64,000 nucleotides of DNA, taken from an uncultured Candidatus Saccharibacteria bacterium (GTDB taxonomy: Bacteria > Patescibacteriota > Minisyncoccia > Minisyncoccales > GWA2-38-27). The stretch lies in NCBI GenBank assembly GCA_964387825.1, contig CAYLWZ010000003.1, positions 2,267 through 66,266 of the forward strand. The letters run 5' to 3'. Made by a program: the position numbers and the translations under genes. The notes below the pieces were generated by a model, which worked only from the letters and a program-made list of their open reading frames with translations, did no database searches and had not been told where the DNA came from. This document shows positions 4,474 through 54,095 of the stretch, piece after piece; within the stretch, counting starts at the first letter, position 1; every line of letters starts with the position of its first letter.

Positions 4474-5730
4474 GTGCTAAAAACCCTAAAAATAGTCATT
4501 ATATCTCTATTTCTCTTATTTCCTTTCTATTCAGTCTTTTCTGCCGAATCATTAAGCGTTGTTATCAATGAAATAGCTTGGATGGGAACGGAAACCAATA
4601 GTTCTGATGAATGGGTAGAGTTATACAATAATACTAATCAAGATATTAATCTTGCAGAATGGGGCTTGTATGAAGCCGGGGGGACAACCTTGATTGAATC
4701 TTTAACCGGAGTAATTAAAGAAAAATCTTATTATCTTATTGAAAGAACAGATGATACAACAATAAGTGATATCCCGGCTAGCCAAGAACCAAGTAGCTGG
4801 GGAGGTTATGGTCTTAAAAATAGTGGGGAACATTTACAGCTTTTGGATAATAATTCTCAAGTAATTGACGAAGTTAATTGTTCGGAAAGTTGGTTTGCTG
4901 GTGATAATAAAACTAAAAAGACGATGGAAAAAATAAGCCCTTCTCTTCCTGGGAATGGTTCTTCAAATTGGCAAACAAGCCAGAATGCAGGCGGGACACC
5001 AAAGGACGAAAACAGCCAAATCCAACAACAACTTTCTGAACCTGAACCCGAACCCGAAACACAGCCAGTTAAAGAACAACGAGAAGAACAAAAAGAAGAA
5101 CCGATGCCTATTATTTATCCTTCTGGCATTTTAATAAACGAATTAGTTCCATCGCCCGAAGGAAAAGATGAGTTGGAGGAATGGTTGGAGTTGAAAAATA
5201 CGGACAACCAAGAAGTTGATATTTCTGGCTGGAAAATACAGGACACTATAGGTTCTACCAAAACTTATATTTTTCCTGAAGGAACAAAAATTAAAGCTAA
5301 TGGCTATTTAGTTCTTGCTCGTCCGGTTAGTAAAATTACTCTAAATAATAGTGGTGATGGATTACAATTAATACAGCCGAATGGAAATATATTAGACAAT
5401 GTAACTTATGGAAAGGCATTACTTGGTCAATCATATAATCGCACAGAATCTGGTTGGAATTGGAGTACTATTTTAACCCCGGGTGAAAAAAACGCTATCC
5501 CCGAAAAAGAACCTTCCTTTATTGAATCTTCAAAGGATAAGAAACTAAAAACAGAGAGCGGGTCTCTGTCAACAGAGAGCGGGTTTCTTAAAAAGGAGAC
5601 AGCCACCATCAAAGAGAAAATCCCTCGTCTTTTTAATTCCTCCTTCCCTTTAATAATTGCCTCTCTTGTCGCCGCTCTCTCGGCAATAATAATTTTAATT
5701 CTCAAAAGAGGACTTAAAAACAACCTTTAA
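4474..5730 (+). CDS. Secreted, C-terminally membrane-anchored protein with two lamin-tail domains
   Basis: GTG start, signal peptide. LTD motifs VINEIAWMGT..DEWVELYN..LKNSGEHLQLLD and ILINELVPSP..EEWLELKN..LNNSGDGLQLIQ. Acidic PEPEPEPETQP linker. C-terminal TM helix PLIIASLVAALSAIIILIL. Confidence 0.8.
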   Translation: MLKTLKIVIISLFLLFPFYSVFSAESLSVVINEIAWMGTETNSSDEWVELYNNTNQDINLAEWGLYEAGGTTLIESLTGVIKEKSYYLIERTDDTTISDIPASQEPSSWGGYGLKNSGEHLQLLDNNSQVIDEVNCSESWFAGDNKTKKTMEKISPSLPGNGSSNWQTSQNAGGTPKDENSQIQQQLSEPEPEPETQPVKEQREEQKEEPMPIIYPSGILINELVPSPEGKDELEEWLELKNTDNQEVDISGWKIQDTIGSTKTYIFPEGTKIKANGYLVLARPVSKITLNNSGDGLQLIQPNGNILDNVTYGKALLGQSYNRTESGWNWSTILTPGEKNAIPEKEPSFIESSKDKKLKTESGSLSTESGFLKKETATIKEKIPRLFNSSFPLIIASLVAALSAIIILILKRGLKNNL

Positions 5731-7198: not shown

Positions 7199-7933
7199 AT
7201 GTCGGGGCACAGTCATTGGCATTCAATTAAATATCAAAAAGGCGCGGCCGATGCTAAAAAGAGTAAGGCCTTTTCCAAAATAACCCGGCTCATCGCCGTT
7301 GCTGCCAGAGAAGGAGGAAGCGACCCTGGCGTTAACTCCAAATTAAGATTGGCCATTGAACAGGCAAAATCGCTCAATATGCCAAAGGATAAGATTGAGC
7401 AAGCAATAAAACGGGGGACAGGAGAACTGACCAGTGAAAAATTAGAAGAATTTACTTTGGAATCTTATGGACCCGGAGGAATCGCCATTATTATTGAAGT
7501 AATCACCGACAATAAAAACCGAACGCTCAGTGAAATTAAACAAATTTTAAATCAAAATAACGGAAAGATGGCCAACGAGGGTTCTGTAAGGTGGCTCTTT
7601 GAACGAAAAGGAATAATTACAGTGAACAACGAACAGCGAACAACGAACAGTGAATGGCGAGAAAAACTGGAATTGGCCGCGATTGAGGCAGAGGCAGAAG
7701 ATATCTCTTGGCAAAATGATATTCTTGATATTTACACTAAACCAAACGAATTGGAAAAAGTAAAAAAGAGCTTAGAAGAAAAAGGGGTCAAAATAGACTC
7801 TTCTTCTCTCGGCTGGTCCCCTAAAGAAACAATAGATACAGAAGAAACAAAAAAAGAAACTTGCCGAAAACTCTTTGAATCATTAGATGAAAACGAGGCG
7901 GTGCAAGACATATACTCAAACCTTAAAAATTAA
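7199..7933 (+). CDS. yebC: YebC/PmpR-family transcriptional regulator
   Basis: Diagnostic N-terminus MSGHSHWHSIKYQKGAADAKKSKAFSK and full-length family architecture. Contains a heptamer-array insertion at 7622-7656. Confidence 0.9.
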   Translation: MSGHSHWHSIKYQKGAADAKKSKAFSKITRLIAVAAREGGSDPGVNSKLRLAIEQAKSLNMPKDKIEQAIKRGTGELTSEKLEEFTLESYGPGGIAIIIEVITDNKNRTLSEIKQILNQNNGKMANEGSVRWLFERKGIITVNNEQRTTNSEWREKLELAAIEAEAEDISWQNDILDIYTKPNELEKVKKSLEEKGVKIDSSSLGWSPKETIDTEETKKETCRKLFESLDENEAVQDIYSNLKN

Positions 7934-8035
7934 TTGTTAAATTGTTAATTATTAAAAAGAACTTAACATTGTAACAATAAGCGACCCCGTCTTGGCGAGA
8001 GAGCGGTAACAATTTAACAATTTAACAATTTAACA
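7932..8035. repeat. Inverted octamer arrays (aattgtta x2 / taacaatt x3) enclosing ~56 nt between yebC and ruvC
   Basis: attgttaaattgttaa (left) is the exact reverse complement of ttaacaatttaacaat (right). The arrays abut the yebC stop codon and the ruvC start codon. Confidence 0.7.
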
Positions 8036-8536
8036 ATGATTATAATGGGCATTGATCCCGGCACTGCCACGACGGGATTTTCAATCATTAACAAAACAAA
8101 GAAAGGCATTAAAGTCCTTGATTATGGATGTATTATTACCAGTCCGGATTTATCTCCGGGAGAACGTTTAAAAATAATAAATAACGAACTTAACAAGTTA
8201 ATTAAAAAATATCGACCGGAAATAATGGCCGTTGAAAGTTTATACTTTTTTAAAAATTTTAAAACAGCTATGCCAGTAAGTCAGGCAAAAGGAGTAATTT
8301 TGCTTACTGCCGCCAAGAAAAAAATCCCGGTTTATGAATATACTCCTCTCCAAATGAAAATGGCTATTGCCGGCTATGGCAGGGCGGAAAAAAAACAGGT
8401 CCAGAAAATGATCCAATCCCTATTTAATTTAGAGGCAAAGCCAAAAGACAAAAATAAAAGAAAGGACGACGCAACAGACGCCTTAGGCATTGCTTTCTGT
8501 TACGTCCTCCAATCAAGAAACGCCACTGTTAAATAA
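8036..8536 (+). CDS. ruvC: Crossover junction endodeoxyribonuclease RuvC
   Basis: N-terminal GIDPGTATTGFSII catalytic Asp motif, AVESLYF, C-terminal DDATDALGIAFC motif. Confidence 0.9.
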   Translation: MIIMGIDPGTATTGFSIINKTKKGIKVLDYGCIITSPDLSPGERLKIINNELNKLIKKYRPEIMAVESLYFFKNFKTAMPVSQAKGVILLTAAKKKIPVYEYTPLQMKMAIAGYGRAEKKQVQKMIQSLFNLEAKPKDKNKRKDDATDALGIAFCYVLQSRNATVK

Positions 8537-11965: not shown

Positions 11966-12388
11966 ATGGCTAAATATTCAAAAGGACAACTCCAAGAGCT
12001 CTATGACGAACTTCCTGAGGAATTAAAAAAAGCTATTTTTTCAGGAAGAGTGTCTTACGATATTTATAATATCTGCAAGGAAAACGGTATAAAAAACGAA
12101 ATTAAAATATCGCAAATTTCTGAAGATATCGGCCATCTCTTTCTTGGATTGATTGCTCCTGAAGAATTCAAAAAAACATTAGAAAAAGAAATTGGATTGA
12201 AAAAAGAAACAGCCAAAAATGTTTATTTCGGAATAACAAAACTTATCTTTCTACCCTTAAAAAAGGAGTTGGAGGGGCTTTATAAAATAAAAATTGAAAT
12301 AGAAGAGGACCAAAAAACCGCTCAACTTAAAAAATCCTTAGAGAAAAAGTCGGTAAAAAAAGATGTTTACAGAGAACCAACCGAGTAG
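11966..12388 (+). CDS. Hypothetical protein
   Basis: Clean ORF with Lys/Glu-rich C-terminus; no motif recognised. Confidence 0.4.
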   Translation: MAKYSKGQLQELYDELPEELKKAIFSGRVSYDIYNICKENGIKNEIKISQISEDIGHLFLGLIAPEEFKKTLEKEIGLKKETAKNVYFGITKLIFLPLKKELEGLYKIKIEIEEDQKTAQLKKSLEKKSVKKDVYREPTE

Positions 12389-12416
12389 TTTGTAGTTTGT
12401 ATTTAGTATCTTGTAT
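12389..12416. repeat. Heptamer tandem array (tttgtag tttgtat ttagtat cttgtat), left flank of the four-helix-bundle gene
   Basis: Four 7-nt units. Its reverse complement matches the array at 12788-12808 in 19 of 21 positions. Confidence 0.7.
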
Positions 12417-12801
12417 TCGTGTGGAAAATAAAAAATCTAAAATTAAATCTTTTACCGATTTAAACACTTGGAAAAAAGGACATAAATTGGTCTTAACAAT
12501 TTATAAAATATCAGAAAAATTCCCGAATAAAGAAATGTTTGGATTAACAAGCCAAATGAGGCGTTCTGCTATTTCAATCACCTCTAATATCGCTGAGGGC
12601 TTTAGTAGAAATACCAATAAAGACAAATGCCAATTTTATTCCATATCACAAGGTTCATTAACTGAATTACAAAATCAATTATTAATTGCTCGGGATATTG
12701 GTTATTTAAAAAATGATGAATTTCAAAAAATTGCCGAACAAACAATCGTTATTAATAAACTAATAAACGGGCTAAAAAGAATAAAATATACAAAATACTA
12801 A
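12397..12801 (+). CDS. Four-helix-bundle protein (23S rRNA intervening-sequence protein family)
   Basis: Family signature TSQMRRSAISITSNIAEGFSR and SQGSLTELQNQL. The true start is probably GTG at 12421 (VENKKSKIKSFTDL..), because the listed N-terminus is translated heptamer repeat. Confidence 0.8.
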   Translation: MYLVSCIRVENKKSKIKSFTDLNTWKKGHKLVLTIYKISEKFPNKEMFGLTSQMRRSAISITSNIAEGFSRNTNKDKCQFYSISQGSLTELQNQLLIARDIGYLKNDEFQKIAEQTIVINKLINGLKRIKYTKY

Positions 12802-12808
12802 ATACAAG
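12788..12808. repeat. Heptamer tandem array (atacaaa atactaa atacaag), right flank of the four-helix-bundle gene
   Basis: Inverted partner of 12389-12416; overlaps the stop codon of the gene. Confidence 0.7.
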
Positions 12809-12811
12809 TTT

Positions 12812-13285: not shown

Positions 13286-13915
13286 ATGCAAATTCCTACT
13301 CAAAACTTTTTAGAGTTTGACCAAATCAGAAACGGCGTTATTATCCTAAAAAACAAAGGATTGAGAATGATTCTAATGGTTTCTTCTTTAAATTTTGCTC
13401 TAAAATCAGAAGAAGAACAGAACGCTATTATATATCAATTCCAGAATTTTTTAAATTCTCTGGATTTTTCCTGCCAAATTCTCGTTCAATCAAGACAACT
13501 TAATATTACCGGCTATCTGGACAATCTGAAAAAAATTGAAGAAGGAGAAACAAACGAATTACTCCAAATACAAATCGGCGAATACAGAAAATTCATTAAC
13601 CAAATAATGACCGGCGGTTCGGTTATGCAAAAAACCTTTTATGTGATAGTTCCTTTTTCTGTTACGGAAATACGAACGACCCAAGGGAAAAAGAAATTAC
13701 CCGGCATTTCTAATATAACCGAGGAAGCTTTCCAAAGAGCAAAAACCCAGCTTCTTCAACGGGTAGAATTTGCCTCTTTAGGATTAAGGGCTTGCGGGCT
13801 CAAATCCGTTCCCTTAAATAACTTAGAGCTCATAGAGCTTTTTTGGGCGCTCTACCACCAATCAGAGGCAGAACAGGGTTATTATCCCGAGTTCCCGCCG
13901 GAATTAAGCAGATAA
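13286..13915 (+). CDS. Hypothetical protein, T4SS-module associated by position
   Basis: Lies between the PrgI-like and VirB4-like genes in the same orientation; no motif recognised. Confidence 0.4.
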   Translation: MQIPTQNFLEFDQIRNGVIILKNKGLRMILMVSSLNFALKSEEEQNAIIYQFQNFLNSLDFSCQILVQSRQLNITGYLDNLKKIEEGETNELLQIQIGEYRKFINQIMTGGSVMQKTFYVIVPFSVTEIRTTQGKKKLPGISNITEEAFQRAKTQLLQRVEFASLGLRACGLKSVPLNNLELIELFWALYHQSEAEQGYYPEFPPELSR

Positions 13916-13932: not shown

Positions 13933-16900
13933 ATGAAAATTTCTTTGTTTGATATTTTTAAAAAAAAGGCGAAAATTTCCGAAGAACCTTTTCAAAAAGA
14001 GCCATTAAGGATCGCTGATATTGTTTCTCCTTCTTATATTGAGGTCAAACAAAATTACATCAAGATGGGAGAAAGCTTTACTAAAAGTTACTTCGTTTTT
14101 TCTTATCCAAGATATTTAAATACCGGCTGGCTCTCCCCGATAATCAATCTCAATATACCGATGGATATTTCTTTCTATTTTCATCCGGTCTCCAGTGAAA
14201 AAATTTTAAAAAAATTGAGAAAAAGAGTCACCGAGGTTCAAGCTGAGTTATCAGAAAGAGAAGAAAAAGGATTAATTAAAGACCCGACATTGGAAACCGC
14301 CTTTCAGGACTTAGAAGAACTTAGAAATAAACTCCAAACTGCCCAAGAAAGAATGTTCCATTTCAGTTTATATATCACAGTTTACAGTAAAACAGAAAAA
14401 AAATTAGACGACATAGAAACTAGTTTGAGGTCTATATTGGAATCCCGTTTGATTTATATTAAACCGGCCCTTTATCAGCAGAAAGAAGGATTTACCTGCA
14501 CCTCTCCTTATAATCTGGACGTCCTAACAGTTTCTAACTTGATGAATACCGCTCCTCTTTCAAGCACTTTTCCTTTTGTTTCCCCTGATTTAAGCTCAAA
14601 CGAAGGGATTCTTTACGGAATCAATAAGCATAACAATTCCCTTGTTTTATTTGACCGTTTTACTTTGCCTAACGCCAATTCGGTAATTTTTGCCACTTCC
14701 GGCGCCGGGAAAAGCGTAAGAGGAGACAGTCCTGTTTTGATAAAAGATAAAAAAGGGGAAATTCAACTTACGAAAATCGGCTCCTTAATTGAAAATACAA
14801 TAAAAAAACAGGGACTTGTTCAAATTGACGAAGAATTAGAAGGAACAATTAATCCGAAAATTAAAGTTTTTAGCTTTAATAAAAACTTTAAAGGAGAATG
14901 GTCTAAAGTAACCGTAGCCGCCAGAAAAAAAGCGCCTAATTTTTTCTATGAAATTAAGACCAAAAGCGGCAGAGAAATTACTGCTACTGCCGACCATAAT
15001 ATATTAATTTTTAAAAACGGAAAAATAATTGCCGCTAAAAGTTCTGAAATAAAAAAAGGAGATCATATTCCTCTGCCCCGGAAAATATCTATTAGCCAAA
15101 AACCGTTAAAATATTTAAATCTGTTAAATCTTCTTAAAAATTCAAAAAAAGTTTACATAATCGGCGCGGAAAATTTTCTAAAAAGAAATTATGGAATTCT
15201 CAAGAAGGTTATTATAGACGAAAAATACGACCGCTATCTTTATCGGTATCGCGACAGCCGGCCTGTTCCTATTCAGTATTTTTGGAAAATTTTGAATCTT
15301 CTTAAAATTGATTTTAAAAATCCTGATTTTAAAAATTTGAAAGTTACTTCAAAAAACGGGAAAAGGCAATATTCGTTGCCCGTTAATTTTCCAGTCACGA
15401 CGGCGCTTTTAAAAATCTTGGGGTTTATTGTCGCCGAAGGAACGACAAAAGACAAAATTATTATAATAAGCAACACAAATTCCGAGTTTCTCCAAGGCGC
15501 TAAGTCTGCCTTTGATTCCTTAGGCATCCCTTCTTTTTATATAGACCGAGGCGTTAACAGCGCCAGCCGGGTATTTATAGAGACGGTCAAAACTCTTGGA
15601 GGTTTTGGAAAATCCAAACAAAAAAAAGTTTGTCCTTTTATTTTTAATTTAGAGAAAAGACAAATTGCCTCATATTTGTCGGCTTACTTTGAAGGAAACG
15701 GGGGAGTGGAAAACCACGAAATAACGGCTTGCTCGAAATCTAAAAAATTGATTTCAGAGATTTCTTATCTCCTATATTATTTCGGCATTATTGCCAGAAT
15801 TTCCAAGATTAAAAAGAAAACTCCTTACTGGGAACATAAAAAATCTTATTATAAATTAGTAATTTCAGGGCAAGATAATTTAAAAAAATTTATTAGCGAT
15901 ATTAATTTTATTTCAAAAGAAAAAGAAGATAAGCTTAAACAGACCGTTAAAAAACAAGGAAATACCAATGTTGATGTTGTTCCCGGAATACAAAGCATTT
16001 TTAGAGAAATTCAACAATTGTTTGGTTTTCAGTTATATGATATAAAAAATTTCCGGGCGCTAAAAAACGGGACGTTTAACCCTTCTCCCGAATTGCTTAA
16101 AATAATAATACTGAAAATCAAAGAAAGAGTGCAATACTTTAAAGATTTGACTTCTACTTTTGGGATTTTAAGCAAACTTCCTGAATTATCTGAAATCGTC
16201 AATCTTGGCAAAAACAATAAAGAGTTAAATAGAAAATTATGGCAAACATTAGGACAAAGCTGGCGAGTAATGAAAAACGAAGAAGTAAGACCGGGTTCTA
16301 TTAATGCCTTCAGGGCAATTGAAACTATCTCAGGCGAAAAATATCAACTCCAAGAAATTAAAGAAGTAATTCATTCAGGATTTAAAGAAACAGGATTGGC
16401 AATAAAATACCTTAACCGTTCCTTACAACCTGCCCTAACTTATCGTTTCCAAAACAACACCGATTATAAAATGATACAAACTGCGGCTCAATTTATCTGG
16501 CAAAATTACCAAAAAATACTGAATAACGGAATTCCCCAAGTTGAAAAAAAATTAGAGCAACTCAAAGCATTGGCCGAATCTAACCTTTTTTGGGACCCAA
16601 TTATAAAAATTAAAAAAATTAAGAATAAAAAAGAAAAATATGTCTACGATTTAACCGTTGACAACGAGGTCTTTCTAACAGGCGAAGGGGGAATGTTTGT
16701 CCATAATTCTTATACGGTTAAATTAGAAGCGCTGAGATATTTGATGTTGAATATAGATTGTATAATCATAGACCCGGAGAATGAATATAAATTTCTGGTT
16801 GACGCGGTTGGCGGCTCTTTCTTTAATGTTTCTTTGGCTTCCCCCAGCCATATTAATCCTTTTGATTTGCCCTCTCCAAGAGAAGACGAAAAGCCAGAAG

Positions 16901-17730
16901 ACGTTTTGAGGTCAAATATTATTAATTTAGTGGGATTAACGAGAATTATGCTTGGAGGGCTCACTCCAGAGGAGGACGGCATTATGGACCGGGCAATTAC
17001 AGAAACCTACGCCGCAAAAGACATTACTACGGAAAGCGACTCAAAATTCTGGGGCAAAGAACTTCCTTTCCCCATAATGTCGGACTTAGAAGAAGTCCTC
17101 TCGGGAATGGAGGGAACCGAATCTTTAATCAAACGGCTCCAAAGATTTACCAAAGGAGTTTATTCTAGTTTTTTCAACCAACCTTCTAATATTAACATCA
17201 GTAAAAGATTGGTTGTATTCGGCATCCGCGATATGGAAGACGAACTCCGGCCAATGGCTCTTTTTATAATTTTAAGATACATTTGGAAAACAGTTACTTC
17301 AAAAGCAAAGAAAAGATTATTAATTGTTGACGAGGCATGGTGGATGATGCAAAACGAAGACAGCGCTTCTTTTCTTTTTGGAACAGTAAAAAGAGCGAGA
17401 AAATACTGGCTCGGAGTAACCACTATTACTCAAGACGTCAACGATTTTATGAAGTCAAAATACGGCCAGCCGATAATCACCAATTCTTCTTTAGCCGTTT
17501 TATTAAAACAAAATGCAGCTACCATAGAAACGGTTAAAAAAACCTTTAACTTAACCGATGAAGAAAAAATGACTCTATTGGACACACCGGTAGGAGAAGG
17601 GATATTCTTCGCCGGAACAAAGCATGTTCTAATTAAAGTTGTGGCTTCTTACGCCGAAGACCAAATAATTACTACTTCCCCCGGAGAAATAGCTAAAATA
17701 AAAGAAGCGAAAAAAGAATTAGGAGATTAA
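13933..17730 (+). CDS. VirB4/TraC-like type IV secretion ATPase, interrupted by an intein
   Basis: Walker A FATSGAGK|S is split. After removal of 14713-16707 it reads ..SGAGKSYTVKLEALRYL... Walker B LLIVDEAWWMM. About 600 aa of extein, the usual VirB4 size range. Confidence 0.8.
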   Translation: MKISLFDIFKKKAKISEEPFQKEPLRIADIVSPSYIEVKQNYIKMGESFTKSYFVFSYPRYLNTGWLSPIINLNIPMDISFYFHPVSSEKILKKLRKRVTEVQAELSEREEKGLIKDPTLETAFQDLEELRNKLQTAQERMFHFSLYITVYSKTEKKLDDIETSLRSILESRLIYIKPALYQQKEGFTCTSPYNLDVLTVSNLMNTAPLSSTFPFVSPDLSSNEGILYGINKHNNSLVLFDRFTLPNANSVIFATSGAGKSVRGDSPVLIKDKKGEIQLTKIGSLIENTIKKQGLVQIDEELEGTINPKIKVFSFNKNFKGEWSKVTVAARKKAPNFFYEIKTKSGREITATADHNILIFKNGKIIAAKSSEIKKGDHIPLPRKISISQKPLKYLNLLNLLKNSKKVYIIGAENFLKRNYGILKKVIIDEKYDRYLYRYRDSRPVPIQYFWKILNLLKIDFKNPDFKNLKVTSKNGKRQYSLPVNFPVTTALLKILGFIVAEGTTKDKIIIISNTNSEFLQGAKSAFDSLGIPSFYIDRGVNSASRVFIETVKTLGGFGKSKQKKVCPFIFNLEKRQIASYLSAYFEGNGGVENHEITACSKSKKLISEISYLLYYFGIIARISKIKKKTPYWEHKKSYYKLVISGQDNLKKFISDINFISKEKEDKLKQTVKKQGNTNVDVVPGIQSIFREIQQLFGFQLYDIKNFRALKNGTFNPSPELLKIIILKIKERVQYFKDLTSTFGILSKLPELSEIVNLGKNNKELNRKLWQTLGQSWRVMKNEEVRPGSINAFRAIETISGEKYQLQEIKEVIHSGFKETGLAIKYLNRSLQPALTYRFQNNTDYKMIQTAAQFIWQNYQKILNNGIPQVEKKLEQLKALAESNLFWDPIIKIKKIKNKKEKYVYDLTVDNEVFLTGEGGMFVHNSYTVKLEALRYLMLNIDCIIIDPENEYKFLVDAVGGSFFNVSLASPSHINPFDLPSPREDEKPEDVLRSNIINLVGLTRIMLGGLTPEEDGIMDRAITETYAAKDITTESDSKFWGKELPFPIMSDLEEVLSGMEGTESLIKRLQRFTKGVYSSFFNQPSNINISKRLVVFGIRDMEDELRPMALFIILRYIWKTVTSKAKKRLLIVDEAWWMMQNEDSASFLFGTVKRARKYWLGVTTITQDVNDFMKSKYGQPIITNSSLAVLLKQNAATIETVKKTFNLTDEEKMTLLDTPVGEGIFFAGTKHVLIKVVASYAEDQIITTSPGEIAKIKEAKKELGD
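14713..16707 (+). mobile_element. Intein (665 aa) with LAGLIDADG homing-endonuclease domain, inserted in the VirB4 P-loop
   Basis: N-terminal splicing block SVRGDSPVLI, block B TxxH (TADH), LAGLIDADG motifs LGFIVAEGT and YLSAYFEGNGG, block F YVYDLTVDNEVFLT, terminal FVHN followed by +1 Ser. Confidence 0.85.
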
Positions 17731-19538: not shown

Positions 19539-19569
19539 AACTTTTTTTAATTTGAGTTTCCTAAATTTA

Positions 19570-19732
19570 CCTTGAATTACGAAATGTTTTTTAGGATAAA
19601 ATTATTTAGTTTTGTTCAGATGGTCGTCAAATTTTTTGAAGCGATATTGGAAAAATATCGTTGAGGAAAATTTGGCGGGCAGATGGGCAAAAATAAAAAT
19701 TTTAGGCAAAAACTGCATTTCGTAATTCAAGG
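19570..19732. repeat. 17-bp perfect inverted repeat (ccttgaattacgaaatg / catttcgtaattcaagg) enclosing 129 nt between rnpA and yidD
   Basis: Arms at 19570-19586 and 19716-19732. The right arm overlaps the rnpA stop codon. Internal hairpin cgatatt..aatatcg. Confidence 0.7.
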
Positions 19733-20080
19733 TAGGTTAATCAGTTTTGCTTTTTTGAAAAGGGCATACAAGGTTTCTTTTATTGATTGGAAATTATTTT
19801 CTTCAAATCCGGGTAAAATTATTATTGCCACGTCAACCCCTTTTTTAATTTCGGGCAAACTGTCTTTAATCGCTTCCCTTAATCTCCTTTTTATTTTATT
19901 TCTAACAACCGACTTTTTAGAAATTTTCTTGCTTACTATAAATCCAAAACGGCTCTGCTTTAAATTATTACTGCCAATTTTTATATATACCTTAAATGAG
20001 GACAGGCTGTATTTTTTCCCTCTGTTAAAAAGATTCTTAAAATCTTTTTCTTTGTTCAATCTGTTGCTCTTAGGAAGCAT
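19727..20080 (-). CDS. rnpA: Ribonuclease P protein component
   Basis: N-terminal LPKSNRLNKEKDFKNLF, RNR-like basic motif VVRNKIKRRLRE. Positioned downstream of rpmH. Confidence 0.88.
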   Translation of the reverse strand: MLPKSNRLNKEKDFKNLFNRGKKYSLSSFKVYIKIGSNNLKQSRFGFIVSKKISKKSVVRNKIKRRLREAIKDSLPEIKKGVDVAIIILPGFEENNFQSIKETLYALFKKAKLINLP

Positions 20081-20131
20081 AATTTAAAATTATACATTTT
20101 AGCCCTTTTATCAGCGCGTAAAAGGCGGAAT

Positions 20132-20266
20132 TTAAATTGCAATTTTTTTCCTTTTTTTTCTTCTCCTTTTTATTAATATCTGCCTGCCTGTCTTAGTTTT
20201 TTGGCGACCTCTAAAACCATGGGTTCTTTTTCTCTTCTTTTTTTTTGGTTTATAGGTAATTGACAT
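20132..20266 (-). CDS. rpmH: 50S ribosomal protein L34 (44 aa, below the ORF-track size cut-off)
   Basis: Manual translation MSITYKPKKKKRKRTHGFRGRQKTKTGRQILIKRRRKKRKKIAI matches the L34 consensus (..YqP...kR.r.HGFR.Rm.T..GR.vl..RR.KGRk.L). Canonical rpmH-rnpA order. Confidence 0.9.
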   Translation of the reverse strand: MSITYKPKKKKRKRTHGFRGRQKTKTGRQILIKRRRKKRKKIAI

Positions 20267-20585
20267 ATATTTCAAAATAAAAAATTAAATATGAATAAGT
20301 TTCTCGCAAGCGAGAGAAAAAATAAAAAATAAATATTTAGAAATTCAAAATTCTTTCTTAATAATTATTCTAATATTAAATCAAATTTAAGTCAATTCTC
20401 TCATAATATTAATTTATTAAAAAAAGAAAGCGAAGAATCCACAGAATATCCACTTATTATTAACAAAACATAGATTTTCCCTTCATTTTCTTTATAATTT
20501 GACATGTGCTACAATTACAGATAAGGAAAAAAGTTGATTATAGTCCCATAATAAAAAATATAATAAAAAATTAAAAAATAAAATC
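20267..20585. promoter_or_regulatory. rpmH-dnaA divergent intergenic region: candidate oriC segment / dnaA promoter with DnaA-box-like sites
   Basis: gaatccaca (20435-20443) and atatccact (20446-20454) each match TTATCCACA at 7/9. Extremely AT-rich. Classic rnpA-rpmH | dnaA-dnaN arrangement. Confidence 0.5.
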
Positions 20586-21935
20586 GTGATTAACGAAGAA
20601 CTCTGGCAATCGGTTCTTGCCCAAATCCAGTTGAATATATCCCAAGTAAATTTTGCGACTTGGTTTAAAAATACAGAAATTATTTCCCAAAAAAAAGAGA
20701 AAGTGGTTATTTCTGTCCCCAATTCTTTTGTAAAAGAATGGCTAGAAAATAAATACAACACGGATATTTTTAAAATTATCCATAAGTTCAATGATAAGAT
20801 TAAAGAAATTGAATATACTATAGGAAAACCAAAGCTAAAAATCTTCAAAAAGAATCCTGTGGTATCGCCGGAAACAGACCAGCTTGAATTCCAGCAATTT
20901 AAAATAGATAAAAACAGCAATCTTAATCCCCGCTATATTTTTGATTCATTTGTCGTCGGTTCGTTTAACGAGCTACCCCACGCCGCTGCCATTGCCGTTG
21001 CAAAAAATCCCGGTTTTGTTTATAACCCTTTGTTTATTTATGGAGGAACAGGATTAGGAAAAACCCATATTTTACAAGCAATCGGCAACGAGGTAATTAA
21101 AAATTTTAAAAAAAAGAAAATACAATATATTCCCTCTGAAAGATTTACCTCTGAGGTAGTTTCTGCGATTAGAAATCATCAGATGGAATTATTTAAAGCA
21201 AAATATAAAGACGTGGATGTTTTAATTATTGACGACATTCAGTTTATAGCCGGTAAAGAGAAAACTCAGGAAGAATTTTTTAATGTTTTTAACGTTTTAT
21301 ACGAAAGTAACAAACAAATTATTCTCTCTTCAGACCGACCTCCCCGGGCCATACAATCATTGGCCGAAAGGTTAAAATCAAGATTTGAAGGAGGAATGAT
21401 AGCGGATATAAGTATCCCTGATTTAGAAACAAGAATAGCAATTTTAAAAACAAAAGCTCAGGAAAAGAAAGTAGATTTTTCAACCGAGACTTATGAATAT
21501 GTCGCTTCTATAATACAAAAAAACATTAGGGAATTAGAAGGCGCCTTAAATCATTTAATTGTTTACCAAAAACTTAACAATCAAAAACCGGATATTGAAA
21601 TTGTAAAAAATATTTTTAAAAATTTATTTTCCGTTAAACAACCAATAGTTACTCCTAAAAAAATCATTCAAGAAGTTGCTGATTTTTATGAAATTAAAGA
21701 AAAAGATATTTTATCTAAATCAAGAAAAAAAGAGATTGTTGGGCCGCGCCAAGTGGCAATGTATCTCTTAAGAGAAGAATTAAAAAACTCTTTTCCTTTT
21801 ATTGGGAGAAAGTTTAACGGCAGAGACCATACCACTGCTATTCATTCTTATAAAAAAATTTTAAATGAAATAATAAAAAATAAAAGATTAGAAGGGGAAA
21901 TAGAATTAATAAAAGAAAAAATCTTAACCGGGTAA
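20586..21935 (+). CDS. dnaA: Chromosomal replication initiator protein DnaA
   Basis: GTG start. Walker A GGTGLGKTHIL, Walker B LIIDDIQF, sensor SDRPP, C-terminal DNA-binding helix region HTTAIHSYKKI. Confidence 0.95.
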   Translation: MINEELWQSVLAQIQLNISQVNFATWFKNTEIISQKKEKVVISVPNSFVKEWLENKYNTDIFKIIHKFNDKIKEIEYTIGKPKLKIFKKNPVVSPETDQLEFQQFKIDKNSNLNPRYIFDSFVVGSFNELPHAAAIAVAKNPGFVYNPLFIYGGTGLGKTHILQAIGNEVIKNFKKKKIQYIPSERFTSEVVSAIRNHQMELFKAKYKDVDVLIIDDIQFIAGKEKTQEEFFNVFNVLYESNKQIILSSDRPPRAIQSLAERLKSRFEGGMIADISIPDLETRIAILKTKAQEKKVDFSTETYEYVASIIQKNIRELEGALNHLIVYQKLNNQKPDIEIVKNIFKNLFSVKQPIVTPKKIIQEVADFYEIKEKDILSKSRKKEIVGPRQVAMYLLREELKNSFPFIGRKFNGRDHTTAIHSYKKILNEIIKNKRLEGEIELIKEKILTG

Positions 21936-22163
21936 TTAATTTAAGCACTTGTTATTAATTCTGTGTCTTATTAGTTGAAAAACATATAATAATATTAGGA
22001 AAAATAAAAACATCAACATATTAAGAGTTTATTCCTTTAAAAGGTCATACAATAAAACACAATTTTTTAAATTAAACACAATATAAAAAATATTACTTAT
22101 CCCCTTTATTAATAATAATAATAATTTTAATTATATTAAAATTTAAAACTACTAAATTAAAAT
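21936..22163. other. Very AT-rich dnaA-dnaN spacer (candidate DNA-unwinding element of oriC)
   Basis: Runs such as ttattaataataataataattttaattatattaaaatttaaaa. Only degenerate box-like sites (ttaaacaca, taaaacaca). Confidence 0.35.
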
Positions 22164-23294
22164 ATGAAATCAATTATTTTACAAGGAAAATTAAAAGAAG
22201 GATTAAATATAACAGAAAGAGTTTCCTTTAATTCATTAACTCTTCCTATTTTAAATAATATTTTAATCAGCACTGAGAAAAATTTTCTCAAGTTATCGGC
22301 TACTGATTTAGAAATAGGAATAAATTGGTGGATTTTAGCAAAAATTGAAAAAGAAGGAGAAAGTGTTGTCCCGTCGCATGTTTTTTTTGATTTTATAAAT
22401 CTTCTTCCTAATAAAAAAGTAAATCTTGAATTTAAAGAAAGTAATTTATTAATTGAGTGTGATAATTATAAAACTAAAATAAAAACCCTAAAAACAGAAG
22501 ATTTTCCTATTATTCCTAAAATTACAAAAGATAAATTTATTTCTATTAAAGGTTCTTATTTTTCTCGTGCGTTAGATCAAATTAAAGATATAATTATACC
22601 ATCAACAACTAGGCCAGAAATATCAGGTATTTATATTTTATTTCAAAAAGATTTAATTACACTTACGGCAACCGATAGTTTTAGATTAGGGGAAAAGAAA
22701 ATTTTCTTAAAAAATCAATCTTCTTTAGATGAGGATTATTCTTTAATTATTCCTCAAAAAACAGCAAAAGAAATCATAAATATATTCAACAACAAAGAAG
22801 ATAATATGAAAATATATTTTTCTCCAAACCAAATAATGTTTGAATATTTATTAAAAGAAACACCCCATCCTCAGGTTCAGCTTATTTCCAGATTAATAGA
22901 AGGCGAATACCCGGATTATAAAGAAATTATTCCTAAAAAATATACCACTAAATTGGTATTAAAAAGAGATGAGTTTATAAACCAAATAAAAAGCGCTAGT
23001 TTATTTAGCGGGAAAATAAATGAGGTAAAAATAAAATCCGACCCTAAAAATAAAAAAATAGAAATATTTAGCCAAAGCCCGGAAATCGGAGAATACCAGT
23101 CCTTTATAACGGGAGAAATTAAAGGAGAAATAGTGGATGTTTCTTTTAATCATAGATTTTTATTGGACGGGCTTTCTAATATAAAGAGCTCAGAAATTAT
23201 TTTTGAATTAAACGGCGATTCAGGGCCCGGTGTTTTAAGGCCGGTTGGCGACGACAGTTATCTTTACGTAGTAATGCCGATTAAAGGGAGCTAA
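22164..23294 (+). CDS. dnaN: DNA polymerase III beta sliding clamp
   Basis: Three-domain length (376 aa), family-typical segments LSATDLEIGI and TATDSFRLGEK, position after dnaA. Confidence 0.9.
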   Translation: MKSIILQGKLKEGLNITERVSFNSLTLPILNNILISTEKNFLKLSATDLEIGINWWILAKIEKEGESVVPSHVFFDFINLLPNKKVNLEFKESNLLIECDNYKTKIKTLKTEDFPIIPKITKDKFISIKGSYFSRALDQIKDIIIPSTTRPEISGIYILFQKDLITLTATDSFRLGEKKIFLKNQSSLDEDYSLIIPQKTAKEIINIFNNKEDNMKIYFSPNQIMFEYLLKETPHPQVQLISRLIEGEYPDYKEIIPKKYTTKLVLKRDEFINQIKSASLFSGKINEVKIKSDPKNKKIEIFSQSPEIGEYQSFITGEIKGEIVDVSFNHRFLLDGLSNIKSSEIIFELNGDSGPGVLRPVGDDSYLYVVMPIKGS

Positions 23295-23301
23295 ATTAAA
23301 T

Positions 23302-23329
23302 ATTAGATATTAGATATTGGATATTGGAT
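23302..23329. repeat. Heptamer tandem array (attagat x2, attggat x2) just after the dnaN stop
   Basis: Four consecutive 7-nt units read directly. Confidence 0.7.
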
Positions 23330-31266: not shown

Positions 31267-31300
31267 AATTCGTATGTTCGTGCTAATTCGTAAATTCGTA
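31267..31300. repeat. Octamer tandem array (aattcgta-like units) between two pilin-operon genes
   Basis: aattcgta tgttcgtg ct aattcgta aattcgta read directly. Confidence 0.65.
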
Positions 31301-31303
31301 AGG

Positions 31304-33631
31304 TTAAAATTCATTAGAGCCGCAACTATAAACTCCTCCGATATCTATATGGGCATAAGGGAGCGTGTCTAAAACATAAGCCCCGGGCGAACATTCTTTG
31401 GCTGCTTCTATTATCTTTTTTAAATAATTTTTTTGGAAATCCGAAGAAACGTCAAATTCCAGGGCGTAAGATTTATGGTCGTAACGGCAATAAGTTCCTC
31501 CGTAATGGGCGGAAACTTGTTCTTGGCGATAGTTTATCTCGTAGGGATATGAACACCCTTCCTGTTCTTCGTGTCCTGCTTCCCAGTCGCAGGTCCCTTG
31601 ATAGAGTTTTTTGTCAGAAATAGAAGCGATTTTTCCTATAATTTCATCATCTTCTAATCCTTCTTGTTGCTGGGTTTTGTCTAAATTTGCCCGCATACAA
31701 GAAAGGAGTTGCTTTAAAGGTTCAGAGGCGTCTTCATATTGATTATAGTATTTTACGTCATAACTACAAAGCCATCCTTTTGGGCAGTTGTCTTCCGATG
31801 GCAAAGGTTGGAATTCTTCGGCCGGGACAATATAAGAAGGCGGTTTTTCGGTCGGAGGAAGAATCTCTCCTGTTTCTTCGGCAAGAGAACAGCAGTAAAA
31901 GTTTCTGGGATGGCAGGAATTGATAATTTGATTATCAGACCCGTAATTTCCCTTAACGTCTTCACAGGACAGCAAAGCCCAATCAGGGTTATCAATATCA
32001 GAACTATGGCATAATCCGGCCGATACGCTGAGATTATTTAAATTGTAGGGGTTTTCTTTATCGTTCAAGTAGAAAGAAACCATGGACAAAGTTTGTTTTA
32101 TTTCTTTGATTGCGTCAAAAATTTTATCCTCGGTTTTTTTTATTTCTTTTGATTTTTTCTCAATGTCATCTGTCGGGCAGGCGTCTCCATTGCAACTGCC
32201 AATTACCTGAGTGCATCTTGTCAGGCAGCTGGGGACGCAAATAGTGCAAGGAATTGGCACGCAGCACATAAAACATAGGTTGGGGACACAATTGCAAGAA
32301 ATATTACAGTTCTTTTTATTGCATTGTGAGACCAGTTCGGTCATTTCCTGTATTTCTTTTGTTTCTTCCTCTATTAGAAGAAAAACCCTATTTAAATTGA
32401 CAATATTAATAATTGCTAATTCTCGGAGATTATCTAATATTTCCCCTATTGGCAATTCAACGGGGCAATTGATTTTTTCAATTCCGCTTAGTTGTTCGGG
32501 AATTTCTTGGGGAGTTAATTCTTCAGAGCGAACATCTATTTTTTCCGGAAAATAGGGATAGTCGTAAACAGTTCCTCCGCTTGAGCAATAGAAAGTAAGA
32601 GGGTCTCCTCGGGAGGGCCAGTAACTGGAAATTTTAGTTATCTGATTTCCCGTTTGTTCAAAATCTTTTTGCGTGGATAGATAGTCATTAAGAGTTTTCA
32701 TATCTTTGTTTTCGTTTTGACAGGCAATAACTCTCCCTTCCACTATTTGAAACTTTCTAAGGCCTTCTCTTAAAATATCTTTTTGTTCTTTGATTTTTTT
32801 TTGGTAATCTAAAAAAGTTTTTATTTTTTCTCCGTTTATTTCCAAAATCTTATTTATTTTTGCTCTCGGGGAATCTTCTTCTACGCTATTGCCTTGGTCT
32901 TTCTGGCAAACATCGCCTACGCAGGCAACGGGCAAGCCGGTCGCCGGCTTAGTGCATAAAGGGGTAAGATTTCCGCAGTGGCATTCATCGGTTAAGGTTC
33001 CTAAGTATTTATTTAGGCCAGAAATTCGGTTGAAAGTGTTGTCTGTCAATTCAGAATCGTCTACTTGTTCCTCTTTTTCAAGAAAATTTTGGAAATCCGT
33101 AATCACTTGTTTAAAATTGTTGATTTTTGTTTCTCCCCAAAGTCCCTCTTTCGCCGCTTGCCCCAAAGGAAGTTCTTCCATAATCAAGGAAGGACTTTCT
33201 ATTGTCAGGGGCGTTGATGTCTCTGCCTCTCCCGGAATGATTGCGTTTAAAGGAGGGAGATTGAAAGTCAATAATCCGGGATTAATAATATGTAATATTA
33301 TGTAAGAAGAAAGCAAAATAACTAATCCTATCGTTCCCCCGAAAATTTCTTCCCTTGCTTCTTTCATTTTAGCAGGGTTGCCAGTTGAGATTAAATAAAG
33401 AACGCCTCCCCATATTAAAACGGCAAGGGCGATGACGCCGGAAATCATAATAGCAAAATTAAAAACATATTTCAGGTATTCGGGCAGAGTAGTATCGCTT
33501 CCCAGCGTCTGTCCGAAAATTTCCGGATAATTGATTTCTAACTGGGATGCTTTAATGAAAGAAGCAAGAAAGAGAAGAAAGGAGAAAACAAAGAGAAAGC
33601 CCAAGAATTTTTTTTTACTTTTCCACAACAT
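31304..33631 (-). CDS. Giant T4SS-pilin-like domain protein with extremely Cys-rich central region
   Basis: N-terminal LPEYLKYVFNFAIMISGVIALAVLIWGGVLYLISTGNPAKMKEAREEIFGGTIGLVILLSSYIILHIINP is a paralogue of the 27181 gene N-terminus. Central CNKKNCNISCNCVPNLCFMCCVPIPCTICVPSCLTRCTQVIGSCNGDACP. Confidence 0.55.
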   Translation of the reverse strand: MLWKSKKKFLGFLFVFSFLLFLASFIKASQLEINYPEIFGQTLGSDTTLPEYLKYVFNFAIMISGVIALAVLIWGGVLYLISTGNPAKMKEAREEIFGGTIGLVILLSSYIILHIINPGLLTFNLPPLNAIIPGEAETSTPLTIESPSLIMEELPLGQAAKEGLWGETKINNFKQVITDFQNFLEKEEQVDDSELTDNTFNRISGLNKYLGTLTDECHCGNLTPLCTKPATGLPVACVGDVCQKDQGNSVEEDSPRAKINKILEINGEKIKTFLDYQKKIKEQKDILREGLRKFQIVEGRVIACQNENKDMKTLNDYLSTQKDFEQTGNQITKISSYWPSRGDPLTFYCSSGGTVYDYPYFPEKIDVRSEELTPQEIPEQLSGIEKINCPVELPIGEILDNLRELAIINIVNLNRVFLLIEEETKEIQEMTELVSQCNKKNCNISCNCVPNLCFMCCVPIPCTICVPSCLTRCTQVIGSCNGDACPTDDIEKKSKEIKKTEDKIFDAIKEIKQTLSMVSFYLNDKENPYNLNNLSVSAGLCHSSDIDNPDWALLSCEDVKGNYGSDNQIINSCHPRNFYCCSLAEETGEILPPTEKPPSYIVPAEEFQPLPSEDNCPKGWLCSYDVKYYNQYEDASEPLKQLLSCMRANLDKTQQQEGLEDDEIIGKIASISDKKLYQGTCDWEAGHEEQEGCSYPYEINYRQEQVSAHYGGTYCRYDHKSYALEFDVSSDFQKNYLKKIIEAAKECSPGAYVLDTLPYAHIDIGGVYSCGSNEF

Positions 33632-35728: not shown

Positions 35729-35768
35729 GTGGAAAGTAGAAGGTAGAAGGTAATAAGTGGTAAGTATG
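35727..35768. repeat. Heptamer tandem array, six units (aagtgga aagtaga aggtaga aggtaat aagtggt aagtatg)
   Basis: Read directly; starts inside the stop codon of the M23 peptidase gene. Confidence 0.7.
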
Positions 35769-37396: not shown

Positions 37397-37405
37397 ACCT
37401 TTATT

Positions 37406-37433
37406 TATGAATTATGAATTACGAATTAAGAAT
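37406..37433. repeat. Heptamer tandem array (tatgaat x2, tacgaat, taagaat) just upstream of comM
   Basis: Four consecutive 7-nt units read directly. Confidence 0.7.
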
Positions 37434-37628
37434 ACAATAAAAAAATCCCAATTCCCAAATTCTAACAACTAATTAATTTTGAATAATAAGTTAATTAGTT
37501 GCTTAACTTAGTTGCTTAACCCGGTTAAGCAACTAAGCAATTTTATGGAATATATTGTTATAGTATATCTTAAACATTGTTAATGTCGAGATAAAGAGCG
37601 CGAAACAGGGTTTTATTAAAAATAAAAG

Positions 37629-38823: not shown

Positions 38824-38895
38824 GGAAAAATAGGGTCAGCTCTGTTTTTTCTTAGAAAAAACAGTTGGAGAAAATAGAGCTGACCCTATTTTTCC
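38824..38895. repeat. Palindromic repeat family C (ggaaaaatagggtcagctct ... agagctgaccctatttttcc)
   Basis: 20-bp perfect arms with an inner hairpin ctgtttttt-ctta-gaaaaaacag. Abuts the stop codon of the 38895 gene. The left half recurs at 41395-41425. Confidence 0.75.
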
Positions 38896-54084: not shown

Positions 54085-54095
54085 TCTTCTTTCTT

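Follow-up and report, generated by a model that had tools for sequence, protein, structure and literature searches.

Why does a 64-kb stretch of bacterial DNA carry 14 short tandem arrays, most of them built from 7-nt units and each with a unit of its own, and why do so many of them lie at the borders of genes? The question is raised by the window analyzed here (the whole stretch, 64,000 nt of contig CAYLWZ010000003.1 from an uncultured bacterium), whose proteins place it in the Patescibacteria (candidate phyla radiation, CPR); its YebC is 77% identical to that of the nearest species representative and 64% identical to that of a Nealsonbacteria genome. Besides housekeeping genes and a type IV secretion-like cluster, the window holds the replication-origin genes rnpA, dnaA, and dnaN, and the answer proposed below starts from one gene of the PF05635 family at 12421–12801. 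Genes of this family are bracketed by heptamer arrays, usually inverted, in an association that is near-universal and crosses phyla, and we lean towards reading the paired arrays of the window as the arms of stem–loop inserts of the intervening sequence (IVS) type.

Tandem arrays were called with Tandem Repeats Finder (TRF) on the whole window, and the gene map was built from open reading frames (ORFs) and Pfam matches, by which 87.6% of the window is coding. The arrays listed in an earlier note on this DNA were all recovered by TRF and by reading, within a few bases of where it had placed them, and TRF added two more, at 52112–52134 and 63923–63957 (Table 1). The unit differs from array to array throughout the 64 kb.

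Period-7 arrays are enriched and lie at gene borders

At thresholds of at least 3.5 copies and a score of at least 35, nine period-7 arrays were observed, whereas 100 shuffled versions of the window with its dinucleotide content preserved averaged 0.05 and never exceeded 1. Under the same thresholds, arrays with periods of 6, 8, 9, and 10 numbered 2, 1, 1, and 1, respectively; given this contrast with both the shuffles and the other periods, the excess is real and specific to period 7. In terms of position, 10 of the 14 arrays are no more than 10 nt away from a gene end, where 1.1 would be expected under random placement (0 of 20,000 trials reached 10), and an eleventh, at 63222–63251, stops 10 nt short of the ATG of a 58-aa ORF, which brings the count at gene borders to 11 of 14. 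The earlier note had expected the arrays to exceed dinucleotide-shuffled frequencies and to be biased toward gene ends. Because both checks came out as it had expected, its observation stands.

The same figures bear on whether the arrays are merely chance low-complexity sequence of an A+T-rich genome. The window has a G+C content of 28–41%, and many of the weak TRF rows are A/T-rich, as suits such an origin, but the shuffle test, the enrichment of period 7 alone, and the existence of relatives with similar composition and no arrays rule it out, so that we assign this explanation virtually no probability. Nor are the arrays artefacts of assembly, because in three further assemblies, obtained from three samples, the sequence is 100% identical to the window over 11.7, 4.8, and 1.1 kb, five arrays included. 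Two Logan contigs (L002 and L003) end at 8037 and 8036, which is where the perfect 31-nt octamer array ends; these ends hint at heterogeneity in the length of that array, or at an array longer than assembled, the assembler having used k = 31. A flank–gap–flank pattern designed for copy-number variants of 8007–8037 had 0 matches on Joint Genome Institute (JGI) metagenome contigs, but it missed a source-like contig as well and is thus uninformative on polymorphism.

A phase-variable contingency locus was rejected as an explanation, because the arrays adjoin housekeeping genes (yebC, ruvC, dnaN, and rsmA) and show no polymorphism in the three assemblies. Intrinsic terminators and repetitive extragenic palindromic (REP) hairpins were rejected because the arms consist of A/T-rich tandem repeats and because separate terminator-like hairpins adjoin three of the solitary arrays. 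Origin-related repeats do not fit either: rnpA, dnaA, and dnaN are in the window, yet the arrays occur throughout the 64 kb without clustering at the origin. In an Rfam scan of the window, which covered CRISPR, riboswitches, and other known RNA families, a single tRNA was the only match.

A PF05635 gene is enclosed by inverted heptamer arrays

The gene at 12421–12801 on the plus strand, which likely starts with the GTG at 12421, encodes a PF05635 "four helix bundle" protein (Pfam, E = 7.8e-39; NCBIfam TIGR02436) that also matches PDB 2GSC (XCC0516; E = 3.7e-25). PF05635/TIGR02436 is the namesake family of the ORFs of 23S rRNA IVSs; it is Avd-like, distantly akin to Avd, the accessory protein of diversity-generating retroelements (DGRs). 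The heptamer arrays on either side of the gene are 95% complementary over 20 nt and lie 371 nt apart, and even a variant unit is mirrored from one arm to the other (TTAGTAT/ATACTAA). When the whole 432-nt cassette was folded in silico, the terminal stem closed both the minimum-energy and the centroid structures.

A syntenic Patescibacteria locus, L009, shares the gene order LTD-yebC-ruvC-tyrS-PBP1-hyp140-prgI-traC with the window. The gap between hyp140 and prgI is about 5 nt in L009, and the PF05635 gene is absent there, which means that window positions 12389–12811 (arm, gene, and arm; 423 nt) constitute an insert. The insert lies between two protein-coding genes, outside helix 25/45 of the 23S rRNA. 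Five close homologues of the gene, 74–84% identical to it and drawn from four to five other genomes, all share this layout, in which 4–6 units of the NNTGTAT type reach into the ATG upstream, and their reverse complement runs downstream from the stop codon to the ATG of the next gene. The cassette occupies the same site, between an upstream hypothetical gene and prgI, in four loci (L084–L087), and a different context, YcaO–PF05635 gene–nitroreductase, in L088. The inverted arms of these related cassettes (L084–L089) are 25–46 nt long, and arrays change by whole units, cassettes from other genomes differing by an exact one-unit indel of 7 nt.

Heptamer arrays bracket PF05635 genes across phyla

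A metagenome scan with an alignment of the family yielded 80 loci, of which the 73 that were non-redundant and complete were analyzed. An array was scored when an identical 4-mer core recurred at exactly 7-nt spacing in at least three consecutive units. Under this criterion, 57 of the 73 loci were positive upstream of the PF05635 gene and 63 of 73 downstream (78–86%), and spacings of 5, 6, 8, 9, and 10 gave 0 of 73. Random windows of the same loci were positive in 7 of 528 cases and other gene junctions of these loci in 3 of 41. Both flanks were positive in 50 loci, in 44 of which the cores were complementary, and arms within one cassette paired better than arms from different cassettes (best ungapped pairing, median of 20 Watson–Crick pairs vs 12 for non-partner arms). 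The flanking arrays had medians of 4.7 and 4.9 units and a mode of 5, and the arrays of the window belong to the same size class. In a crude test, mismatches were spread evenly and unclustered over the seven unit positions, and the idea of a conserved 4-nt core with a variable spacer inside the arrays was therefore dropped.

Among annotated plasmids, most tblastn matches to the family came from Nostoc, Calothrix, Trichormus, and Anabaena, and flanking heptamer arrays were present at 13 of the 14 plasmid PF05635 genes inspected (Cyanobacteria, Riemerella, and Gemmatirosa). The flanks were inverted in Picosynechococcus, Riemerella, Anabaena sp. 90, Aulosira, Stanieria, Nostoc edaphicum, Nostoc ATCC 53789, Geminocystis, and Calothrix brevissima; in Nostoc PCC 7120, arrays lie on both sides of the gene with non-complementary units. 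The Azospirillum locus is a true 23S rRNA IVS (Rfam LSU, 509 bits), and heptamer arms flank its ORF at both ends. In Xanthomonas, accB and accC enclose the S23p gene (XCC0516 family, PDB 2GSC); its 5' flank, GGGAATC GGGAGTG GAGAATC GGGAATC, encodes the protein's own N-terminus (MENRES), its 3' flank consists of CCCATTC-type units up to the accC ATG, and the unit in these flanks is the genome-wide GGGAATC and its complement. Bracketed genes were thus found in every phylum sampled: Patescibacteria, Cyanobacteria, Bacteroidota, Alpha- and Gammaproteobacteria, and Gemmatimonadota. A search for PF05635 relatives in phage genomes, as an outgroup control based on Avd, gave no match.

The plasmid of Pseudanabaena galeata (L181, 45965–46894) carries 14 or more copies of CTAAAAG upstream of the gene and 10 copies of CCAAAAG downstream, in direct orientation, a departure from the inverted arrangement that speaks for periodicity rather than pairing as the common denominator. 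In cultured bacteria, PF05635 genes were also seen within conserved operons (L172, L173, L175–L179, L181, and L184), namely between cas10 and cmr3 in Picosynechococcus, cas6 and cas4 in Anabaena sp. 90 and Pseudanabaena, an iscA-like gene and sufB in Riemerella, accB and accC in Xanthomonas, and nrdB and nrdA in Nostoc edaphicum.

Inverted pairs without an ORF are a recurrent kind of insert

The pair of octamer arrays at the yebC–ruvC junction is an ORF-less insert with the same design as the PF05635 cassette. Its arms are 84% complementary over 25 nt, and the predicted fold of 7925–8045 has a free energy (dG) of -21.3 kcal/mol (z = -2.7). The yebC stop codon overlaps the ruvC start (ATGA) in L009, and the two genes are 2–12 nt apart in five other relatives; because they overlap or nearly abut in most relatives, window positions 7934–8035 (arm, 50-nt core, and arm) are an insert. 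This insert and that at 12389–12811 each fill exactly the interval between a stop codon and the start codon that follows. The third pair, downstream of tRNA-Lys, is 89% complementary over 28 nt, with a predicted fold of -26.2 kcal/mol (z = -3.2). These results agree with the earlier suggestion that some of the arrays form inverted pairs and others are solitary: three pairs were found, and the remainder are mostly unpaired. The suggestion that the arrays are stems of small stem-bounded elements holds for the paired arrays, which fold into long stems; the comparison of orthologous sites that had been called for was made, and two of the pairs have empty sites in the syntenic L009.

Inverted heptamer pairs with other units occupy the yebC–ruvC junction in L018 (GGTATCT TGTATAT AGTATTT TGTATTT ... 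AAATACC x5) and in L028; L048 and L078 have probable, looser pairs, and L006 has single-copy arms, AAATTGTTGC ... GCAAGCAATTT, apparently homologous to the octamer arms of the window. The recurrence of inverted pairs at this junction in other Patescibacteria shows that the ORF-less hairpin is a recurrent kind of insert. In the pieces of about 20 kb that were examined, the heptamer arrays of L018, L019, and L029 had no PF05635 gene nearby. Near yebC in unrelated phyla, L019 (an Ignavibacteria metagenome-assembled genome) has an inverted pair of ATTTCGA-type and AATCCGA-type units at 5007–5125, and L029 (Desulfothermus okinawensis) has three abutting heptamer arrays with three different units at 13465–13561. 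In the closest relative, L004 (2217–2838 and 3361–4437), the junction holds HNH/NUMOD-like ORFs in place of the hairpin, and ORFs of 206 and 103 aa (no family scan) are inserted 3' of ruvC beside a duplicated ruvC 3' end. These inserts of L004 mark the yebC–ruvC neighborhood as an insertion hot spot.

Small hairpins of other kinds invite comparison at this point. The foldback elements of Drosophila have inverted arms composed of short tandem subrepeats, and REP sequences and miniature transposable elements with inverted repeats (MITEs) are small intergenic hairpins. The paired arrays might thus be the terminal inverted repeats of miniature foldback- or MITE-like elements mobilized in trans. 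Their inverted termini, their status as insertions relative to relatives, the presence of other selfish inserts (HNH/NUMOD ORFs) at the L004 junction, and the core shared by two nonamer-armed hairpins of the window (47858–47946 and 54000–54095) are in keeping with this. However, the heptamer-armed hairpins of the 64 kb have neither a unit nor a core in common, no transposase lies nearby, and the arms are only about 80–95% complementary. No target-site duplication was visible when the junctions at the insert ends were inspected, although a direct repeat could hide inside the arrays. The resemblance to foldback elements and MITEs is one of analogy only, and we regard such an origin as very improbable.

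Solitary and intragenic arrays

The solitary arrays 3' of genes sit just ahead of a separate terminator-like hairpin. Two other arrays have partners of a lesser kind: that at 37405–37433 has a weak inverted partner at about 37447–37465 (CCAATTCCCAAATTCTAA; predicted hairpin dG of -11.4 kcal/mol, z = -1.6), and that at 52112–52134, in a histidine kinase whose HisKA_7TM domain (Pfam) covers residues 11–224, has a short inverted partner, AAGATAAGAT, at 52090–52099. The unit of the former, TTATGAA, is of the same type as AATTATG, the second most common type of perfect-doublet unit in the flanks of PF05635 genes (9 loci). The octamer array at 31267–31301 is predicted to be unstructured and falls between the stop codon of gene 31304–33631 and a likely internal ATG of the 944-aa ORF, placed near 31260 on reading the sequence.

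The arrays in yebC and rsmA encode the peptides that had been reported from the letters, VNNEQRTTNSEW in YebC and RYKLQATSYK in RsmA. As RNA, the yebC array has a predicted dG of -2.6 kcal/mol and the rsmA array a dG of 0; the former can also be read as a period-14 repeat (x2.6, 90% matches; TRF). In an alignment of YebC homologues, the yebC array falls in a hypervariable inter-domain loop that differs by 0 to >11 residues between them. The corresponding loop of L009 contains GTGAACA and ATGAACA without an array, and an unrelated heptamer array lies at a similar offset in yebC of L062 (compared by coordinates only). The rsmA array precedes the ANLPY motif in a region whose length varies relative to KsgA of Bacillus subtilis. 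The earlier note had interpreted both as insertions tolerated in variable loops. The loops are indeed variable in length, but the arrays are not net foreign insertions, as the RsmA loop is shorter than that of B. subtilis KsgA and the YebC loop is a few residues longer than those of relatives. Together with the two units already present in L009, the small change in loop length makes the intragenic arrays look like in-situ expansions that kept the frame. Their sizes preserve it: 36 nt in yebC and about three extra units elsewhere.

Two further repeats in coding sequence were noted. The YebC homologue P0003 (282 aa) has a 38-residue internal tandem duplication over NKNRSL...ERKG that ends in the same variable loop and could be real or an assembly artefact. 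A perfect hexamer array, ATAGGC x3.7, at 34973–34994 in the LysM/M23 peptidase gene is in-frame, unlike the heptamers.

Stem–loop inserts, slippage, or both

With somewhat better than even confidence, we interpret the paired arrays as the arms of IVS-type stem–loop inserts that are also subject to slippage, and the solitary arrays as products of the same 7-nt process. The full version would be 12385–12807, with the PF05635 gene in its loop, and 7930–8037 and 63120–63251 would be versions lacking an ORF. In the transcript, the two arms would form a stem at least about 20 bp long, which RNase III might cut, by analogy with 23S rRNA IVSs, where such cutting has been demonstrated experimentally, and thereby free the insert from its neighbors. 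The arrays would grow and shrink by slippage in 7-nt steps, and the solitary arrays, together with the three intragenic ones, would most likely arise from the same 7-nt expansion and survive only in spacers or, at frame-preserving sizes, in tolerant segments of proteins.

Several observations weigh against this interpretation. Although the window has some 14 arrays or pairs, only one is tied to a PF05635 gene, and the others would be akin to it by architecture alone; the resemblance of their units to the flank units of PF05635 genes does not significantly exceed that of random heptamers from the window (6 of 8 within one mismatch vs a null of 44%). The three independent assemblies show zero copy-number differences in the five arrays covered. 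The cassette found at the same site in L084–L087 means that the insert may be old and vertically inherited, not recently mobile. In terms of RNA structure, the solitary arrays are predicted to be unstructured (dG of 0 to -2.6 kcal/mol), the unit counts of the two arms are uncorrelated at the metagenomic PF05635 loci, and the Pseudanabaena and Gemmatirosa loci carry direct rather than inverted arrays. Moreover, mismatches between arms comprised 28 G–U and 40 A–C pairs (74 arm pairs, p = 0.18), and this lack of a G–U excess means that there is no signature of selection for pairing of the sense-strand RNA. The absence of a G–U excess, the uncorrelated counts, the direct arrays, and the solitary arrays all count against a pure RNA-stem view.

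Alternatively, the arrays may be neutral heptanucleotide simple sequence repeats, generated from local sequence by a lineage-specific 7-nt slippage of the replication machinery (the polymerase-footprint idea attributed to Mrazek et al. 2007) and cleared by selection from coding DNA only, with neither an element nor a function behind them. Enrichment confined to period 7, a separate unit for each array, mismatches spread evenly over the seven positions, intragenic arrays located within variable loops, and a yebC array that seems to have grown from the GTGAACA/ATGAACA already present in L009 all favor this account. Whole-unit indels occur between cassettes and also between strains (PMC4990558, PMC4679880), among non-triplet periods 7 is the commonest in unrelated bacterial loci totalling about 1.2 Mb, and a slippage hypothesis is quoted in the literature (PMC4692102). 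However, slippage alone leaves unexplained the frequency of arrays in PF05635 flanks (78–86% vs 1–7% in controls), the reverse-complementary flanks (44 of 50), and the coincidence of the paired arrays with insertions, and the closest relatives, with similar base composition, lack arrays. We consider slippage alone unlikely, although not negligibly so.

Relationship to known heptamer repeats and intervening sequences

The earlier note had been unable to name a described class of element that fits. Such classes exist: the 23S rRNA IVS with an S23p/PF05635 ORF, known from Coxiella burnetii and Leptospira, fits the paired arrays, stem heptamers being present in Coxiella (PMC4990558) and Azospirillum, and the heptamer families of Xanthomonas, Nostoc, and Beggiatoaceae also match (PMC4692102, PMC4679880). 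In the IVS of Coxiella 23S rRNA, the 28-bp stem includes 2–3 GACAGAT units plus a degenerate copy immediately ahead of the S23p ATG; the number of units varies by strain, and the first of them is where RNase III cuts (PMC4990558). The window cassette is like the Coxiella IVS in that a PF05635 ORF occupies the loop of a terminal-inverted-repeat stem (28 bp in Coxiella; 20 nt, 95%, in the window), in size (428–444 nt vs 423 nt; PMC4990558), in the heptamers immediately 5' of the ORF start and inside the stem, and in its sporadic presence, being an insertion relative to L009. It differs in that it lies in a type IV secretion-like operon rather than in helix 25 or 45 of 23S rRNA, and its excision by RNase III would be predicted by analogy; furthermore, most arrays of the window have no ORF between the arms or have no partner.

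In Xanthomonas, Rehm et al. (2015) reported about 186 GGGAATC arrays per genome, 70–75 of them as convergent pairs, together with GGGGA(C/T)T repeats in Nostoc, and interpreted the repeats as G-quadruplex-forming; neither S23p nor accB is named there (PMC4692102). The window arrays resemble these repeats in being intergenic tandem heptamers that in part form inverted pairs; the published repeats also vary in length among species. Those genomes have one dominant G-rich unit, whereas the units of the window are A/T-rich, all distinct, and incapable of forming a G-quadruplex. TAACTGA repeats occur in marine Beggiatoaceae and in some Cyanobacteria and Bacteroidetes (PMC4679880). MacGregor (2015) counted 169 sets in a Beggiatoaceae genome, most of them ending within a few nucleotides of a start codon, found that strains of Cyanothece differ by 7-nt indels, and postulated an unknown post-transcriptional regulator, without mention of S23p (PMC4679880). 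These repeats, like those of the window, have 2–6 copies, are nearly all intergenic, and sometimes extend over the upstream stop codon or lie inside ORFs, and their indels between strains come in 7-nt steps; however, they have one unit per genome and are nearly always direct (one inverted set), whereas the window has many units and several inverted pairs.

Short tandemly repeated repetitive (STRR) sequences, the heptamers of heterocystous cyanobacteria, were reportedly described by Mazel et al. in 1990. They too are tandem heptamers in non-coding DNA with a lineage-restricted distribution, and the plasmid PF05635 matches are dominated by the STRR genera Nostoc, Calothrix, Trichormus, and Anabaena; they differ in having a few genome-wide consensus units, for which the window has no counterpart. 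Because heptamer arrays are known from Nostocales (STRR), Xanthomonas (GGGAATC), and Beggiatoaceae (TAACTGA), the arrays of the window are not new in kind. Mrazek et al. (2007), as quoted in PMC4692102 and PMC4679880, noted an over-representation of heptamers in many bacteria and put forward polymerase slippage or the polymerase footprint. Period 7 likewise stands out there among periods of 5–11, in non-coding DNA and with slippage proposed, but the quoted passages explain it by the polymerase footprint and name no associated gene.

These precedents, and the proposal of MacGregor for the TAACTGA arrays in particular, which mostly end 1 nt ahead of start codons (PMC4679880), raise the possibility that the arrays are binding sites of an oligomeric protein, either the pentameric PF05635 protein itself or a translational regulator such as S1, Csp, or CsrA, that would control the translation or stability of adjacent genes; those around the PF05635 gene would then be autoregulatory. 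In favor of this, the arrays adjoin or contain start codons, the modal size of five units corresponds to the homopentamer of XCC0516 (Lin et al. 2006, as cited in PMC10053308 and PMC4990558), the S23p flanks of Xanthomonas use the unit of about 186 other arrays, and the direct arrays of Pseudanabaena and Gemmatirosa suit binding better than pairing. However, all units of the window differ, so that one sequence-specific protein could not read all of them; no position-specific conservation exists inside the arrays; and the match of five units with a pentamer may be a coincidence. Control by a binding protein is thus rather improbable in our view. A broader suggestion, which we make tentatively and hold to be unlikely, is that the PF05635 pentamer is the missing partner of bacterial heptamer repeats in general, which it would bind, at about five units per pentamer, or whose formation it would promote. 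Were this true, the arrays flanking PF05635 genes, the ORF-less hairpins, solitary arrays, the stems of 23S rRNA IVSs, cyanobacterial STRRs, and GGGAATC repeats would belong to one system, and the long-noted over-representation of period 7 in prokaryotic repeats would be accounted for.

Heptamer repeats have been catalogued in cyanobacteria since 1990, with Xanthomonas and Beggiatoaceae following later, without agreement on their origin or function, with slippage, G-quadruplexes, and translational control all proposed. The rule that links PF05635 genes to heptamers across phyla, and thereby IVSs, STRR-type repeats, and the GGGAATC repeats of Xanthomonas, appears not to have been stated before; we found no literature that ties PF05635/S23p genes to heptamer repeats in general, part of the relevant literature being outside the search. 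What is new in the window is the setting in a Patescibacteria genome, in protein-coding operons instead of rRNA, and with a separate unit for each array. If the link is causal, PF05635 offers an experimental handle on the special status of period 7. In the CPR, compact operons are interrupted by stem–loop inserts, which probably alter the co-translation or processing of neighboring genes.

Array coordinates and other features of the window

Table 1. Tandem arrays of the window and the core of the yebC–ruvC insert (copy numbers follow x; sequences are given as read on the plus strand unless stated otherwise)
Positions	Strand	Feature	Units and copies	Setting
7619-7654	+	Solitary heptamer array	GTGAACA ACGAACA GCGAACA ACGAACA GTGAATG; x5.1 (TRF)	In yebC
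7930-7956	+	Octamer left arm, pair I12	AATTGTTA x ~3	Begins in yebC stop codon
7957-8006	+	Insert core (loop), pair I12	Degenerate copies TTAACATT GTAACAAT and a G+C-rich piece	yebC–ruvC junction
8007-8037	+	Octamer right arm, pair I12	TAACAATT x3.9, perfect	Ends in ruvC ATG
12385-12417	+	Heptamer 5' arm, pair I23	TAGTTTG TAGTTTG TATTTAG TATCTTG TAT; x4.7	Begins in stop codon of upstream gene
12780-12807	+	Heptamer 3' arm, pair I23	ATACAAA ATACTAA ATACAAG; x4.0	Includes stop codon of PF05635 gene; ends 4 nt before prgI ATG
23295-23329	+	Solitary heptamer array	ATTAGAT x5.0	Directly 3' of dnaN stop codon; terminator-like hairpin next
31267-31301	-	Interrupted octamer array	TACGAATT-type on minus strand, 2 + 2 copies	
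34197-34225	-	Solitary heptamer array	CTTGTAA x4.1 (plus-strand reading)	In rsmA
35727-35768	+	Loose heptamer array	AAGTGGA AAGTAGA AGGTAGA AGGTAAT AAGTGGT AAGTATG	Begins in stop codon of LysM/M23 gene
37405-37433	+	Heptamer array	TTATGAA x4.1	9 nt upstream of start of minus-strand comM-like gene
52112-52134	+	Heptamer array	TTATCTT x3.3, perfect	In 7TM region of histidine kinase gene
63120-63136	+	Left arm of ORF-less hairpin, pair I5	AATTTTG, only x2.4	7 nt past tRNA-Lys
63222-63251	+	Right arm of ORF-less hairpin, pair I5	TTCAAAA x4.3, perfect	Ends 10 nt before ATG of 58-aa ORF
63923-63957	+	Solitary heptamer array	AAAAATT x5.0	Across stop codon of DUF6036 gene; G+C-rich hairpin next

The loose array at 35727–35768 amounts to about six units, of which TRF reports 35732–35752 only (x3.0).

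Hairpins of other designs were also observed in the window. Those at 47858–47946 and 54000–54095 share the core GACGTTTCCGACTTTT and its complement, and their outer stems consist of tandem nonamers (AAAAGTAGG / CCTACTTT); the former has a predicted dG of -40.3 kcal/mol (z = -9). This nonamer-armed pair is a dispersed family with arms built from repeats, a design akin to that of the heptamer hairpins. The hairpins at 38824–38895 and 41427–41504, with similar arms of 27–28 nt (GGAAAAATAGGGTCAGCTCTGTTTTTTC and AAAAATGGTGTCAGATCTATTTTTTCT), probably represent another small hairpin family. Long inverted repeats are present in intergenic regions at 59782–59954 (25 nt, 96%) and 1282–1430 (26 nt, 88%), and another, at 19568–19734 between yidC and rnpA, has 81-nt arms with 72% complementarity.

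The origin region at 19727–23294 comprises rnpA on the minus strand, dnaA (20586–21935), and dnaN (22164–23294), and the most A+T-rich part of the window is at 20–24 kb (27.8% G+C). The VirB4/TraG-like ATPase gene at 13933–17730 contains an intein that itself bears a LAGLIDADG endonuclease domain (Pfam Intein_splicing and LAGLIDADG_3). Downstream of tRNA-Lys, the 58-aa ORF at 63261–63437 overlaps the start of the DUF6036 nucleotidyltransferase gene at 63391–63945, and the two look like a toxin–antitoxin pair.

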